A stretch of DNA of 64,000 nucleotides, taken from the NCBI GenBank assembly GCA_965217865.1, contig CBDCJO010000002.1:1952001-2016000 (forward strand), given 5' to 3'. Below are positions 30,312 to 38,265 of this stretch, piece after piece. The notes beneath the pieces are model-generated. The model was not told the origin of the DNA, made no database searches, and worked only from the letters and a program-made list of their open reading frames with translations. The first letter of the stretch is position 1; each line of letters begins with the position of its first letter. The DNA is from Candidatus Latescibacterota bacterium. GTDB lineage: Bacteria > Latescibacterota > UBA2968 > SICM01. Both the position numbers and the translations under genes were made by a program.

Positions 30312-30583
30312 AAAGGATCTCCACGGAGGTAGGTGGCCGGCATCGAGATGGGCAGATTTTCCTCCCAAGTGCATTCAAGAGCTACGTAACGTCACGGCCC
30401 CGTTGGAAAGGTTGTTCGATGGGAGGGATGAGACGATCGCCTCATAACGATGCGCATTCAGGGTGTTATACTTGAAGAGGGAAGACAAAGAGGTAATGTA
30501 GTCCTCGCTGTATTTTGAGGGCTGATTTCAAACCGTCACAAGCAAATGACAGCATATTTTGTAATAAGACCTGGAGCCAAAAC

Positions 30584-30764
30584 CTGGATAGCTTGATGTT
30601 ACCGTCAAAGGGGAGTTCGTCTTAAAATCGATTTCTCCTATAGCAAGAAATCTACGAACATATTCGGGTTACTTCCTCGTGGGGTGGTATCTGCGAAGTG
30701 CGGGAGATATACTGAATATGGTGGAATCTGCGTAATGGTTCGGGGATTCCGTAAGTTATGCGCC
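30584..30764 (+). promoter_or_regulatory. attI-like leader A (ends at core site GTTATGC, 30755-30761)
   Basis: Homologous to the reverse complement of 38088-38265; homology ends at GTTRRRY-like core. Confidence 0.7.
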
Positions 30765-30791
30765 AGTTCTCATCAAGATAAACAACTGACT

Positions 30792-31169
30792 ATGGAATCC
30801 GAGACACGTCTTCGTGCGATTCTACGGTTTGTAAAACGTGTCGCTCTATTTGAGGTCGCTCTGCTCGCGCTGCTTGGCTTTGTATGTTGGGCCGCAGGAT
30901 GGAACTCTCTGAACCAATACAGTGCCGTTGTCTTTTGGGTAGGGATTCTAATTTTCATCATCGGAACATTGGGCGTCACAGGTAGGTTGGGCGCGACTGG
31001 TGACTTCAAGTATCAGTATAGTCAAACTGCAAGCCACCAGAGTTCAACCGAGAGAGCCCAGCAGGACGTGGCGGATCAAATTCATAGCGGGAGGGCACAT
31101 GCAGTCATATTTACTGTCGGGACTCTCGCCGTCATAGTTGGCTCAGTGATTCCACTAATTGCTGGGTGA
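30792..31169 (+). CDS. Cassette-borne membrane protein (three TM segments)
   Basis: Single ORF between GTTATGCGCC (30755) and its complement GGCGCATAAC (31183-31192). Confidence 0.7.
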   Translation: MESETRLRAILRFVKRVALFEVALLALLGFVCWAAGWNSLNQYSAVVFWVGILIFIIGTLGVTGRLGATGDFKYQYSQTASHQSSTERAQQDVADQIHSGRAHAVIFTVGTLAVIVGSVIPLIAG

Positions 31170-31185
31170 ACAGAGGGGAACCGGC

Positions 31186-32951
31186 GCATAACACATATTA
31201 AAGGCCCCGGGTCAAGAAAAAAAGACTCCTCCATCACGATTTTCACCGTTTTTTTGCGACCCTAACGTTCGGGGCGTGCAATGAGCCGATCCGAAGAGGT
31301 TTGGCGATGTTCGGATCTTTGTCAGTCGTCGGTCTGACTTGATTTTCACAAACCGGGCTAGATGTGAGCCATCTGCACCAAACACGTATCGGGAATCAAG
31401 CGCCTCTCACGGTATACTGTGGAGCGCCCTGGGAGAGGCATTGTCCTCTCCCTCCAGAAAATAATCGGTACCCCTTGAGTCCCAATCAAGAAGGATGGCT
31501 GTTCTCCCCTTTTATGAGGGGGAACGCCAGTTAGGTTCGGGTTCATCGCGGGGGCAGACGGACTGACTGTCTCAGATCCGCTCATCTATGTTCTAAATAA
31601 GGGGTGAAGGCGGCTTCCCAATCAAGCCGATGAGCTGGGCTATTGTCCGGACGTTGCCCTGCCAGTTAGGCGCCGGGTTAACCGCCCCACCCATTATGCT
31701 ACAAACCGTTTCTCGTCGAATGCCTGGCCGTTTTTGAGCATTTGGTAGGCGGCCACGCCGAATTTGTGAGCGATGACGCTCTTGGCTTTTCCCGGACCTT
31801 GTTTGCTTTTGAGCTTCTCGTAGTATCTATTGATCGGTTCTGACCATCGCTGGGCGACGAGGATGATTTCTGAGAAGGCCCACTTTAGGTGTGGGTTGCC
31901 GATTTTGTTATTCCCGTCCTTTGTCTTCTTTCCAGCGGACTCTCTCTCGACTTTGATCAGCCGGCTGTAGGAGGAGAAGGCTGAAGCGGATTTGAACCGT
32001 TCAATCGTGTGGATTTCATACAGGATGGTCATGGCCAACATCTCCCCAAGTCCGGGAACCGTCATCAGGATAGACAGGACATTGCGATCGTGATGTTTGG
32101 CCTGTGCCAAGACTTGCTTCTCGACTTTGTAGATCATTTTGTCCAGGGAGTCAACCAGGTCCAGATCGCAGTCCACAGACATACTCAGATCTGGGTCGGC
32201 CAGACGTTCGCACAGCTTTCTCCTGTTGCTCTTCTTTTTGACCTGGTCGCTGAGAGGATCCAGGATAGCTTGCTGAGAGAAGGTGTTCTGGATGTGGGTG
32301 TAACACTCAGCCCGTAAGGCCACAAACCGGTGTCTTCGCCGGAGCAGGTCCCGGGTTGCCCGCATCTCTTGCGGATAGGCATAGGCCATCGGGAACAGGT
32401 TGCAGCGCATCAGCTCAGCCAGCATTCTGGAATCGAGACGGTCGTTCTTTTTCTTGCCCCCATGGATCGCCTTCATATACAGGGCGTGTCCCAGGTAGAA
32501 TGGAATCCCGGCCTTGTGACACCCGTCAGCCAGCCAGTACCAGTTGAAGGTTGACTCCACCCCGACGGCGATGCTACCGAGGTGAGTTTCCAGCACCTGC
32601 AGCAGGAGCTTGAAGTCGTTTTTCAGGTTGCGCTGGAACACAATCTCTCCCATCTTGTCCATGATGCAGACAAACATCGTTCTGGCGTGGAGATCGATGC
32701 CACAGAAATAGTTCGAGTCGATCCTTGCGTATTGCATAAGGCCCTCCTGTGGGAGAAAGGTGATTGAGATATCCGGATCTCAATTATAACCTCTCCTGAC
32801 AACGAGGGCCTTTATATTAATATCACGGCACCCCCGGCTCCGGCGCATTCGTGCCGTCGCCAAACCTGCCTTTCGCGGACACGGCGCTTGCTTTAAGGAC
32901 AAAATCTGGCGCAACCGCCGCGCCGCTCGGCAGGTTCGTGGGTGCCGAGAA
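31186..32951 (+). other. attC-like site split by an IS110 insertion (31186-31196 plus 32824-32951)
   Basis: GCATAAC box; rejoined sequence gives a CGGCACCC...GGGTGCCG stem. Confidence 0.65.
31197..32821 (-). mobile_element. IS110-family (IS1111-type) element A; recombinase 31694..32737, ~490 bp 3' non-coding end
   Basis: GIDLH, VEST, KNDRLDS, VPGLG, ESAGK, GNPHLKW; subterminal IR TAAAGGCCC; AT repeated at both junctions. Confidence 0.9.
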
Positions 32952-33488
32952 CTACATGCGGAATGTCAAGAGCAAGGTTGACGATTTCGAGGTTGGATGA
33001 GATTTTTTATGCCGGTTTTCTCAGCGTCAAGGGGTGTAAAGTGGACATTCTTACTATGTTCGGAGCGCAGTTCGCCCTTATGGTGCAGGACCGGTCTTTG
33101 AAGAGGGGCGAAGCTCCCGTGTGGGGGGTGGTGTCTTCCGATACCAACTTACATCCGCGGCCGGCACTCTTGTTTGTGTGAGTAGGTGTGCCGGTCTTCG
33201 CGCATTTTCTAATCCGATCCAGGAAGACGGGGAGGCCTGCGGATCTGTTAGCCGAAGCGACTCCTATCGGAGCCCTCCTCTCAAGCCAGTTCTGCAGGCC
33301 GCCCCCGGCCGCCTTGTTCAGGCGGCACTCTTGTGTAACCGATCGGAGACCCGCAGAAACGCCGAGTGCGATCATCGTCCTCATCTGTCCTTGAGCAACT
33401 TCGAGCAGATGAGCGCATTGTTCGGGTGTGAGCCAGGGCGGTACTTTTTTCGGAAGTTTAAAGCGAACGAAGCCTAATCCGCATGGCA
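32952..33488 (-). mobile_element. Transposase-less mini-element sharing the 3' non-coding end of IS110 element B
   Basis: 32952-33345 is the near-exact reverse complement of ~36885-37275; CATGCGGA inverted at both ends. Confidence 0.75.
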
Positions 33489-33614
33489 GTTAACGCCCCG
33501 GCATCCCCGAACCTGCGTCTTATCCTCCGAAGCTCCGACCCTGTCCTTCCGAAGCTCCGAAGGAGCGAAGGAGGGGAGGGCTGTCAGGCCTGAGCTGGGG
33601 GTGCTGTGTTAGGC
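33489..33614 (-). other. attC-like site
   Basis: Minus strand: GCCTAAC ACAGCACCCCC...GGGGATGCCGGGGC GTTAAC imperfect palindrome. Confidence 0.65.
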
Positions 33615-35353: not shown

Positions 35354-37338
35354 GCCTAACGATTTCTATATTGAGTAAAGGAGGAAAAAACAGCGTTGAG
35401 GGGCTGAATCTTCCCTTGCAAGGCAAGGTGTCTTAAGATTCGGCAAGCGCAAGCAAACTCAACCCTCAACGCTGGAGGTATACGATGAAGTCGAAAATCT
35501 TCCACCTTAAACGACAGGCCATCTCCCAGAATTTCGTCCTCGGGATCGATCCGGGCAAGGAAAAACACAGCGGGTCGGTGCTCGATCCCTCCGGACTTCA
35601 GCAAGGCGGGGCCTTCTCATTCCCCGTGACGCGAGCGGGATATGACCATACCCTCTGGCAGCATCTGGAGCGACGCATCAAAGATTGCGGGCCGGATCGG
35701 ATGGTGGTGGCCATCGAGACGTCCTGCAATCTGTGGGTTACCCTGGCCCACTACCTCCAGGGGAAGGGGTATCGCGTGCTGCTGGTGAGCCCCCTCACGA
35801 CGTATCACGCAAGACCGATGATGCACCGCGATTTCTCCAAGTCGGATCCCAGGGATGCCTTTCTGGTGGCCGACAGCGCACAGAAGGGAAGCTATGATCT
35901 CTTCAGGACGTTCGAGCCTCACATGGAGGCCGCGCACCAGCTCTCAATCGCCTACGACAAGCTCCGGAAGGACCTCACAAAGTCCCTGCTCCGCACCCGG
36001 TCTCTGATGGAACGCGTCTTCCCGGAGTTCCTCCACGCGGTCAACATTCGTACGAAGACCTCCCGCTACCTGTTGGAGCGATATTTCTTGCCCCGCCACT
36101 TCGAGGAAATTGACATCGAAGAGGAGGGCCGCCAGATCCATCGGATCTCAAGAGGCAGTTACGGGGTGGCGACGCTGCAGAAGCTGAAGGAGGAGGCCCG
36201 GACCTCCATCGGGATCCCGGTCGAGGGCCAGGAAGATGTCCTCCGCATCATCCTGAATGGCTGGATCGAGGCGCTCCGGCGGACCGAGACGCAACTCAAA
36301 GCTGTGGAGCAGGCGATGATCGCCCGCACTCAGCAGGATCCGACTTTCCAAATCGTCGACTCGATCTCCAACATCAACAAAAACCTGGCTGCCCAATTTA
36401 CCGCGGAGACGCGAGGGGCCACCCGCTTCACCCACTTCAAACAGATCGAGAAGCTCGCCGGCACGAACGTGCGCATCGCCGACTCCGGAAAGTACAAAGG
36501 CAAAAGGCGGATGAGCAAGATCGGCAATCCCCGGCTGCGGCGAATCATCTACCAGATGACCGAACAGACCGCCCGGGTCGTGCCCCAGGTCCGCCGCCGC
36601 TTCCTCGAACGCGAGCTCAGGAAGAAGTGCTACCGCAAGAATATCGTGGCCGCCTCGTCCCAGCTCCTACGGCTCATCGTAGCCCTGCTCAGAGAAAATC
36701 GTCTCTACGAGGAGAGAGACCACCCCGCGGCATCCCTCAAAACGCTCGAGAGGCGCTACATGAAGCGCTACAAGAAAAAGCAGCATCCCCGACGGCGCGC
36801 TCGCGCCGCCGCCTGACCGCTGCCGCGGTCACACTCGCTCTTTGACATCGCTGCTCGATTCACATCCGGTGCAGTCTCCTGCCGGACCGGTTACACAAGC
36901 TGCCGCCTTCCAAGGCGGCCAGGGGCGGCCTGCAGAACTGGCTTGAGAGGAGGGCTCCGATAGGAGTCGCTTCGGCTAACAGATCCGCAGGCCTCCCCGT
37001 CTTCCTGGATCGGATTAGAAAATGCGCGAAGACCGGCACACCTACTCACACAAACAAGAGTGCCGGCCGCGGATGTAAGTTGGTATCGGAAGACACCACC
37101 CCCCACACGGGAGCTTCGCCCCTCTTCAAAGACCGGTCCTGCACCATAAGGGCGAACTGCGCTCCGAACATAGTAAGAATGTCCACTTTACACCCCTTGA
37201 CGCTGAGAAAACCGGCATAAAAAATCTCATCCAACCTCGAAATCGTCAACTTTGCTCTTGACTTTCCGCATGTAGTTCAGCTGGCCCCGACGCCGCCGTA
37301 AGGCGGTGTTTGGATTTTCCGGGGCCAGCGTGTTAAGC
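35354..37338 (-). other. attC-like site split by IS110 element B (37338-37276 plus 35366-35354)
   Basis: Rejoined: GCTTAAC AC GCTGGCCCCG...CGGGGCCAGCT GAA ATC GTTAGGC. Confidence 0.7.
35367..37275 (+). mobile_element. IS110-family element B; recombinase 35485..36816, ~460 bp 3' non-coding end
   Basis: GIDPGK, IET, KSDPRDA, DSGKYKG, SKIGNPRLR; TTC repeated at both junctions; imperfect IRs. Confidence 0.9.
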
Positions 37339-37403
37339 GCCGTGTTGCGATCAGAGAGAATTGACGAGCAAGGCCTGGGTTCTCGCTCAGTAACAAAAAG
37401 GTT

Positions 37404-38000
37404 CTACTGCTTTTCAAAGTCTAGTCCTACAGGTTGTCTTGGGTACTTAAACCGTCTTACGTCAGTGTTAGGTACTTCGCTACCAACCACCTCGAACTTT
37501 ATATCATCGATCCAGGCTTGGCCTGGACCATCGAGCAAAATGCCAAAAACGAGATTGGTACTGCTGAGAGGAACATCCAAGACAATCTCATATGCCTTCC
37601 AATCAATTGTGCCTTTGAGCGGCCTATCCTGCATGTTGTCAAAACTAAGAAATCCTTTTCCTGGGGCGTCTACACGCATCCACATTCCTACCCAATTCTG
37701 AACATCCTTTACTTTGATGTATCCGGTCATGCGAACACGTTCGCCATAGAAACCGGCAGCTCCACATACTTGCATCAACGTGCCGAAGCCGCTTGGTGGG
37801 GAAACTTTCGACTTGATCATTCCGCTGAATTGCCCCCCGCGATGCACTTTGTCATCTAGTCGCATATCATAGTCGCCAGGTGACTTACCTGCTTTGATCC
37901 AACCTTCGGGCAATCTGCCCTCCTCTGCTACAGCTACTCCTGTTCCCACAAAGATGGTCAAGAAGAGAACAATCAGAGTAGAGATCTTCTTAGGCATCAT
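37404..38000 (-). CDS. Cassette-borne secreted protein (FGTLMQ...WMRVD carbohydrate-binding-like domain)
   Basis: Signal peptide; bounded by GTTAAGCGCC (38097) and its complement GGCGCTTAAC (37341-37332) on the minus strand. Confidence 0.75.
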   Translation of the reverse strand: MMPKKISTLIVLFLTIFVGTGVAVAEEGRLPEGWIKAGKSPGDYDMRLDDKVHRGGQFSGMIKSKVSPPSGFGTLMQVCGAAGFYGERVRMTGYIKVKDVQNWVGMWMRVDAPGKGFLSFDNMQDRPLKGTIDWKAYEIVLDVPLSSTNLVFGILLDGPGQAWIDDIKFEVVGSEVPNTDVRRFKYPRQPVGLDFEKQ

Positions 38001-38087
38001 GTGCAAATCCTTCCCCGTCAAGTGTCACGGCAATAGAATGTTATTGGAAGTCAACTGACCCGCTTCTCAATCATACAGCAGCAACAT

Positions 38088-38265
38088 GGCGCTTAACTTA
38101 CGAAATCCCTGAACTCCTACGTAGATTTCATAATTTCGGCATAACTCCCGCCCTGCGCAGATACCTCCCACGAAGAAGTAACCGGTATATGTTCGTAGAT
38201 CCCTTGCTATAGGAGAAATCGTTTTAGGATGAACTCACCTTTGACGGTCACATCAAACTATCCAG
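38088..38265 (-). promoter_or_regulatory. attI-like leader B (ends at core site GTTAAGC)
   Basis: Inverted homolog of 30584-30764. Confidence 0.7.

Follow-up and report, generated by a model that had tools for sequence, protein, structure and literature searches.

A probable three-part guide RNA in the 3' non-coding end of an IS1111-group element inserted at attC-type sites

In this Latescibacterota genome, the non-coding 3' end of an element of the IS1111 group likely encodes a three-part guide RNA of the bridge/seek type, composed of a target loop, a donor domain and a second target-like loop (module 2) that is nested in the donor domain. We put the probability of this reading at roughly 0.7. 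The kind of RNA has been known since 2024 under the names seekRNA and bridge RNA, attC-targeting members included, and the lineage described here differs from the known kind by its insertion point and by the nested extra loop. RNA-guided IS110/IS1111 recombinases are under development as genome-editing tools.

All positions refer to the window, i.e. the whole stretch of 64,000 nucleotides that was analysed, in which the element is encoded on the minus strand. For comparison, relatives were collected from genomes and metagenomes, with transposase identities of 34-73% among the matches listed. Matches are estimated to be present in 920 stretches from genomes and 3300 from metagenomes; the comparison covers the matches listed, and among these 51 relatives have a readable right end.

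The element, its copies and its insertion sites

The element and its immediate surroundings comprise the following features.

31192 to 32825, minus strand: complete element of the IS1111 group, with the TG core of both junctions counted in, delimited by the junctions of genomic copies
32825-32824 and 31193-31192, minus strand: TG core at the element junctions
32806 to 32823, minus strand: left end ATATTAATATAAAGGCCC with a subterminal inverted repeat, inverse to GGGCCTTTAATAT of the right end
31694 to 32737, minus strand: gene for a DEDD transposase/recombinase of 347 amino acids (PF01548 and PF02371, NF033542)
31194 to 31215, minus strand: right end, consisting of TTGAC (31215-31211) and then the subterminal repeat GGGGCCTTTAATATG
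31181 to 31191, minus strand: right flank of the target, TTATGCGCCGG, to which the module 1 guide fits at 11 of 12 positions

The transposase contains the domains PF01548 (E=4.7e-17) and PF02371 (E=4.9e-19), and it reaches 188.7 bits against NF033542, the NCBIfam model of IS110-family RNA-guided transposases (cut-off 140). About 86 nt separate the left end from the start codon, and the longer non-coding region is located downstream of the gene, with about 500 nt between the stop at 31694 and the right end at 31194; the non-coding 3' end as a whole measures 507 nt. The proposal, made in a preliminary description of this DNA, that the stretch is an IS1111-type non-coding end is supported. A 75-aa frame at 31585-31358 was considered as a gene and rejected, as it is broken by 1-nt indels between the two subfamilies of the element defined below.

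The 1.63-kb unit is present in the genome in seven full copies at 99.3-100% identity, two full copies at about 94.6% and five partial copies. In the following, subfamily A refers to the near-identical copies and subfamily B to the copies at about 95% in the same genome. Alignment of the junctions gives TG-ATATTAATATAAAGGCCC as the left end and GGGGCCTTTAATATG-TG as the right end, with the subterminal inverted repeats TAAAGGCCC and GGGCCTTTA a few bases inside both ends. All genomic copies have the same ends, and their flanks have ..GCCN-TG / TTAGGCG in common. This flank pattern is shared by 11 right and 11 left junctions in the genome, as expected of insertion in one orientation into a specific target, and the target is not duplicated beyond the shared core. 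An empty paralogous site reads ...GCGC-TG-TTATATG, and thus the TG is common to target and element, comparable to the core dinucleotide of IS621. One copy, c370k, carries an extra TG at its right junction. Plasmid-borne named relatives were not found above 47% identity.

A TTGAC box is located 16-21 nt inside the right end in this element and, at constant distance, in about 40 relatives among the matches listed. It is likely the -35 box of a junction promoter, with a putative -10 box in the left end, by analogy with the role assigned to such a promoter in the sections on ISEc11 in PMC11187229.

The right end, ...TTTAATATG-TG, runs straight into TTATGCGCCGG (31191-31181), and the element therefore abuts the box, which is split as G|TTATGC on the element's strand. 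The preliminary description had placed the element a few bases from GCATAAC; this is accurate and can be sharpened, because the element directly adjoins the box, as GCATAA|C on the plus strand. Together with the core G, TTATGCGCCGG reads GTTATGC, an attC R'-type box. The genomic sites have left flanks of the form ...AGCCG-N5-GCCN in common, while their right flanks are TTAGGCG-like. As the right side including the core G reads GTTRRRY, the element is positioned at G|TT, and its insertion position corresponds to TG|TTRRRY of attC-like sites.

The surroundings of several sites resemble gene cassettes. GGCGCATAAC, the exact inverse of the target's right flank TTATGCGCCGG, is found 427 nt downstream in a cassette-boundary-like arrangement (31192 versus 30755), and an exact inverse of the first 10 flank bases is present 427-809 nt downstream at three of the 11 sites, which is a gene-cassette signature. 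Both attC boxes are present at the sites of the relatives L051, L054 and L058. An integron integrase above the cut-off of 265 was not detected in the genome, the best match being one 352-aa frame in two pieces (117.7 and 105.4 bits) about 300 kb from the window. For this reason, we refer to the targets as attC-type and not as proven attC.

Target loop and donor domain

Two short sequences are doubled on the minus strand of the non-coding end: CCTAACTGGC occurs at 31670-31661 and 31535-31526, and CTTGATTGGG at 31626-31617 and 31490-31481. The combination CCTAACTGGC-N30-40-CTTGATTGGG has two matches in the 64-kb window, which are precisely modules 1 and 2, and none of 100 dinucleotide-preserving shuffles contained even two matches. 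RNA folding predicts a separate hairpin in each module, and the interiors of the two modules are unlike each other. The doubled CCTAACTGGC-hairpin-CTTGATTGGG arrangement followed by CTTGATTCCC, from which the preliminary description had started, was recovered in full and in place. Module 1 is defined by three features.

31601 to 31692, minus strand: module 1, an outer stem and an internal loop around a hairpin, from the fold and from homologous loops in relatives
31665 to 31672, minus strand: module 1 5' guide CGCCUAAC, complementary to the core G and TTAGGCG of the right flank
31621 to 31628, minus strand: module 1 3' guide GGCU-UG-AU, corresponding to left flank, TG core and 2-nt handshake

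The two strands of this loop match opposite target strands across the insertion point, which is the layout of a guide RNA of this kind. CGCCUAAC matches 6-8 of 8 bases at the seven subfamily A sites, and the handshake AU of the 3' guide repeats the two bases with which the left end begins. In subfamily B, the 5' guide reads CAGCUAAC, and the B sites have ..TG at positions 7-8, where the A sites have ..CG; the 3' guide reads CGCUG-UG-AU, and one B site has the left flank GCTG. The module 1 guides thus changed together with the sites between the two subfamilies, which provides a natural experiment within one genome.

The relatives point in the same direction. Among the matches listed, their 5' guide pairs with a mean of 7.1 consecutive bases from the core G, compared with 1.35 for targets of other groups, both means being approximate because the position cut-off mis-sorted L044, L122 and L171. 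For the present element, the guide-pairing count with this cut-off returned a spurious hit at -300. The 3' guide of the relatives differs from the left flank, the TG and the first two end bases by a mean of 1.04 mismatches in 9 positions (n=25, among the matches listed; left-flank counts leave out L013, whose left end was mis-set by the repeat search). The handshake of module 1 tracks the left end, with AU for AT, AC for AC and AG for AG (among the matches listed). On the strength of these sequence matches, module 1 is assigned as the predicted target-binding loop.

The second part of the RNA, the donor domain, contains the following elements.

31554 to 31561, minus strand: 5' strand of the closing helix, CCGUCUGC, which pairs with 31376-31369 and covaries in relatives
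31457 to 31466, minus strand: candidate right-donor guide GAUUAUUUUC, opposite G+ATATTAAT in the left end
31391 to 31400, minus strand: third CTTGATT motif CUUGAUUCCC (the CTTGATTCCC of the preliminary description), immediately 5' of the donor guide
31381 to 31389, minus strand: left-donor guide AUACG, core UG and handshake UU, which copies the right end ATATG-TG and then the TT of the target
31369 to 31376, minus strand: 3' strand of the closing helix, GCAGAUGG, from the minimum-energy fold and covarying in relatives

AUACG-UG-UU is followed by the conserved UGGUGCAG (31389-31373). The donor guide AUACG contains one mismatch to the right end ATATG (C for T), which is also seen in L093. In 51 relatives among the matches listed, the seven bases that precede the handshake are found again at the right terminus, downstream of the TTGAC box, and these copies follow the right end of their own element, as illustrated by TTGGGTG in L060 and TTGGTTG in L084. 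Of 39 non-redundant cases, 33 have a donor handshake that is the same as the first two target bases, and in the other six one of the two bases agrees (among the matches listed). The third motif, in the form CUUGAUCC(C/U)G, is found in many relatives among the matches listed, but not in all. The preliminary description had identified a third module as the donor part; this was roughly in place, with the right-end copy itself (31389-31381) located just 3' of that module.

The closing helix is present in the minimum-energy fold of 31566-31362 (z -3.2). At least seven consecutive pairs are formed in 21 of 34 relatives, compared with 18% of cross-comparisons, and the sequence of the helix varies in relatives while the pairing is kept (both among the matches listed). 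Its duplex energy in comparison to shuffles is weak (median z -0.6), and the case for the helix therefore rests on the anchored pair count and its cross-control. For the candidate right-donor guide GAUUAUUUUC, 7 of 10 positions pair in this element and 9 of 10 in L117. Its own score exceeds the cross score weakly (5.0 versus 4.14 of 7), with L057 and L123 mis-picked and the left end of L170 probably mis-set, and this difference is too small for the guide to be put forward as a claim.

A search of Rfam over 30500-33500 at E<=1 returned no family match, and neither a promoter nor a terminator was predicted inside the region on its strand. The RNA libraries X1-X4 contain contigs of relatives at 95-97% identity over parts of the gene, and X3 contains such contigs over 31191-31539, all at a depth of 1-5. 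These contigs may be DNA carry-over and are taken as evidence neither of transcription nor of RNA ends.

The analogy with IS621 and ISEc11 suggests that the transposase would hold the target by module 1 and the circularised element by the downstream domain. Target and circular DNA would then be exchanged at the shared TG, and the element would thereby come to lie precisely at G|TT of the attC-type GTTRRRY box. According to the transposition experiments on ISEc11 in PMC11187229, transposition already took place with a short RNA that consisted of nothing but the target loop, which makes the need for a donor domain in this family less secure.

The nested second loop

Module 2 is located between the two strands of the closing helix.

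31471 to 31553, minus strand: module 2, the conserved target-like loop inside the donor domain, found clade-wide and with covarying stems
31535-31530, minus strand: module 2 5' strand CCUAAC
31490-31485, minus strand: module 2 3' strand CUUGAU
31257 to 31266, minus strand: GUUAGGGUCG, complementary to the module 2 5' strand CGAACCUAAC at 9 of 10 positions

In every target group examined among the matches listed, a second loop of the same build lies between module 1 and the donor guide, and the outer stems of module 2 show compensatory changes in five of eight pairs. The two modules had been described as tandemly duplicated in this element. Most of the 51 relatives (among the matches listed) possess the second loop, and the three-part layout of module 1, module 2 and donor part is a clade-wide property and not a duplication in this element. 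In most relatives among the matches listed, module 2 is unlike module 1 outside the last 4-6 guide letters. We read module 2 as an old paralogue of the target loop that forms an arm inside the donor domain, and not as a recent duplication. Module 2 was also considered as an ordinary donor loop; this was rejected, as its 5' strand has no match to the left end in a consistent register.

The 5' strand of module 2 is related to the target. Of 37 non-redundant guide pairs, 28 show pairing of this strand over at least four bases counted from the core G, and its mean pairing is 5.75, compared with 1.42 in the cross-group control (all among the matches listed; both means are approximate owing to the mis-sorting of L044, L122 and L171). 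The correspondence between right flanks and 5'-strand letters is as follows.

Right flank TTA: module 2 5'-strand letters UAAC
Right flank ACCCC: module 2 5'-strand letters GGGGU
Right flank GCACC: module 2 5'-strand letters GGUGC
Right flank TCCCC: module 2 5'-strand letters GGGGA
Right flank GCATC: module 2 5'-strand letters GAUGC

The 5' strand of module 2 thus still appears to read the core G and the first 4-6 bases of the right flank. It is conceivable that the middle loop is no relic but serves as a functional third reader of DNA, specific for core and right flank, with a full second address copy in the present element, but we consider this rather doubtful.

The 3' strand and the behaviour of module 2 upon target changes bear on a reading already contained in the preliminary description, which had assumed two target loops plus one donor loop. 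As anatomy, this count is retained, and as multiplexed targeting it is not. If module 2 were a second working target loop, the RNA would be naturally multiplexed, either with two addresses or with one strict and one relaxed address. The module 2 of this element has indeed every formal feature of a target loop, i.e. the same 6-nt guide, the UG and the handshake AU, which equals the left end here and in the similar L095. In addition, the 5' strand tracks the right flank in several independent target groups (among the matches listed), and in the L051/L060 group the left flank is resembled by the module 2 3' strand as well, 1-2 of 9 positions being mismatched. However, subfamilies A and B do not differ in module 2, although module 1 has changed in both strands, and when fit to the genomic sites is compared over 8 bases, module 1 fits better at 9 of 11 sites and module 2 at none. 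The 3' strand of module 2 differs from the left flank by a mean of 3.24 mismatches in 9 positions, versus 1.04 for module 1, and its handshake place (AG, UG, UU or UC) matches neither partner in most relatives (both among the matches listed). In L145, L057 and L118, module 2 kept its old letters, while module 1 and the donor handshake followed the change of target. The nesting of module 2 in the donor domain also argues against a second target loop. Since module 2 remained unchanged upon retargeting of module 1 and since no site fits it better, multiplexed targeting is unsupported, and we regard it as unlikely. The same applies to the suggestion that module 2 broadens the range of attC variants or engages the other attC arm: module 2 stayed the same while module 1 was retargeted, module 1 fits each of the 11 sites no worse than module 2 does, the 3' strand of module 2 fits the left flank poorly and the loop lies inside the donor-closing helix. 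Module 2 alone probably does not choose insertion sites.

Alternatively, module 2 could read the right junction, such that the donor domain would hold the right end, the TG and the right flank for excision or for capture of the product. Module 2 and the right-end copy are part of the same closed domain, and the strand of module 2 that corresponds to the right flank is well kept, while the strand that corresponds to the left flank is not. A need for such a function would be in line with the account of IS621 excision by Hiraizumi et al. 2026 (PMC13626964), in which the excision substrates have to stretch across both loops as an awkward X and excision has a low efficiency, and with the excision experiments on ISEc11 in PMC11187229, in which target flanks were required. 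The argument is nevertheless purely inferential, a matching extra reader for the left junction is absent, and ISEc11 moves with the short RNA alone. This role is therefore even less probable than a second address.

The preliminary description had treated CCTAAC as a guide sequence and had named its invariance in homologues with non-attC targets as the finding that would speak for a scaffold. In homologues with other targets, different letters occupy this place, which supports a guide. CCUAAC itself is also present in module 2 of L120, and about five letters of module 2 differ in comparison to L013 and L093. Two of these differences are matched by changes in the GUUAGGGUCG segment, and in L013, L093 and L096 GUUAUUUGUG is found opposite (C/A)..AAAUAAC. 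In an energy test over 37 relatives among the matches listed, pairing between the module 2 5' strand and the downstream segment gave a z near 0. A module 2 that merely serves as a scaffold for protein binding or folding, with structural guide-like letters, is highly improbable: its stems are conserved and covary, YUUGA.UGG is present in every module and the 5' strand can pair downstream with matching changes relative to L013, L093 and L096, but for the clade as a whole the downstream pairing lacks significance, and the 5'-strand letters vary by target group and match the element's own module 1 guide over 8-10 nt (both among the matches listed), as would not be expected of a pure scaffold.

Relation to known systems and significance

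The three-part RNA proposed here is closest to the seekRNAs of ISKpn4, ISPst6 and ISPa25, as they are presented in the sections of PMC11187229 on these elements. In both cases, a DEDD transposase gene is followed by a long 3' non-coding region, and attC-type targets are combined with subterminal inverted repeats. As in the IS1111 seekRNAs described there, the loop has its top-strand match 5' of its bottom-strand match. The position within attC is not the same, however. Table 1 of the review PMC13604230 gives the insertion point of ISKpn4, ISPst6 and ISPa25 as TTGAA*CG, about 11 bases before GTTAG, whereas the element described here is inserted at TG|TTRRRY, the cassette crossover position. The non-coding region of ISKpn4, inspected by eye in the supplement of PMC11187229, contains a right-end copy and, in the part from the target loop to this copy, no second target-like loop. 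The Discussion of Siddiquee et al. 2024 (PMC11187229) states that the role of the longer seekRNA form "remains to be established".

The comparison with the bridge RNA of IS621 reveals both common and divergent properties. As in the IS621/IS110 bridge RNA treated in PMC11208160, the loop strands read both DNA strands beside a shared core dinucleotide, and as in the IS621 complexes of PMC13626964, a separate donor loop and 2-nt handshake guides that match the partner DNA are present. In contrast to IS621, the RNA is located 3' and not 5' of the gene, the guide strands follow each other in reverse order, TG and not CT forms the core, the subterminal repeats are long and the donor domain contains an extra target-like loop. 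In the part of their study that concerns IS1111 members, Durrant et al. 2024 (PMC11208160) placed the donor-binding bases of many of them in a multi-loop, which agrees with the location of the donor guides in a multi-branched domain here. The guide letters of the target loop and the sites differ in step, as described in the retargeting sections of PMC11187229 for ISEc11 and ISXne4; different from these cases, the retargeting occurs within one genome, concerns 2-5 letters and leaves the second loop fixed. A text search of the literature found no paper with a "second target-binding loop", although PMC11208160 (Fig. 6d; Extended Data Fig. 10c) and supplementary figures 6-7 of PMC11187229 may draw one for IS1111 members.

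For integron biology, the relevant feature is the insertion exactly at G|TT, where cassettes are joined, and an element at this position is able to split cassette arrays at their recombination points. Together with its relatives, the element constitutes a readable natural data set that includes retargeting within a genome, a handshake that follows the target and a conserved extra loop. If the extra loop has a job of its own, such as reading the right junction for excision, this would be a step beyond the two-loop model of IS621. If the middle loop is a third reader, the same RNA could bind the circular donor in one case and the right junction of the integrated element in the other, and the labour would be naturally divided between an address loop and a junction loop. 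This would account for efficient excision by this IS1111 clade, and it would offer a three-loop design for programmable recombinases.

Pairing potential downstream of module 2

In the segment downstream of module 2 (31553-31471), the target-like loop nested in the donor domain, the sequence GUUAGGGUCG at window positions 31257-31266 can pair with the 5' strand of module 2, CGAACCUAAC, at 9 of 10 positions. The homologous place in the relatives L013, L093 and L096 holds GUUAUUUGUG facing AAAUAAC. Across the whole clade, this pairing reached no significance; the segment could mimic the target or engage in long-range pairing.

Relatives and copies at other sites

L096, a 73% identical relative on a metagenome contig, has an insertion that interrupts module 1, the target-binding loop, and its non-coding region carries a palindromic insert in place of the donor-guide region; L096 is probably a decayed copy. 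A contig from an RNA-library run (X3) contains a 95%-similar copy of window positions 31191-31539, followed by a different flank (G+TTACC...), which would be a further insertion site, occupied by a relative from another community. Within the genome that contains the window, the subfamily B copy c370k (contig C2, ~372334) displays an additional TG at its right junction (..ATATGTG-TG-TTATATG), and an empty paralogue of its site is present at C2:4225710, 0.9 kb from a different copy.

Sequences neighbouring the insertion

Three units of the window are considered here:
32950-33200, minus strand: repeated unit of about 250 bp, adjoining the target site on its upstream side
30755-31192: cassette-like unit
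37332-38097: cassette-like unit

The repeated unit occurs at no fewer than nine further genome locations with 99-100% identity, and it may be longer than the length given because the query began at 33200. It terminates in ...CTCTTGACATTCCGCATGTAGT, a sequence that resembles either a solo end or the right end of a different IS1111-type element.

Each cassette-like unit has, at its two boundaries, 9-10-mers of the GTTA..GCGC type that are exact inverse copies of each other, and in the boundary pair of 30755-31192 the match extends to 15 of 16 bases. The best integron-integrase-like frame of the genome, at a distance of ~300 kb, is one of 352 aa at C2:1657178-1657988 (L173/L174). Two separate pieces of this frame match TIGR02249, at 117.7 and 105.4 bits, while the middle part between them has no match, and the frame stays under the TIGR02249 cut-off. 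The two units look like integron gene cassettes that are clustered without a nearby integrase.
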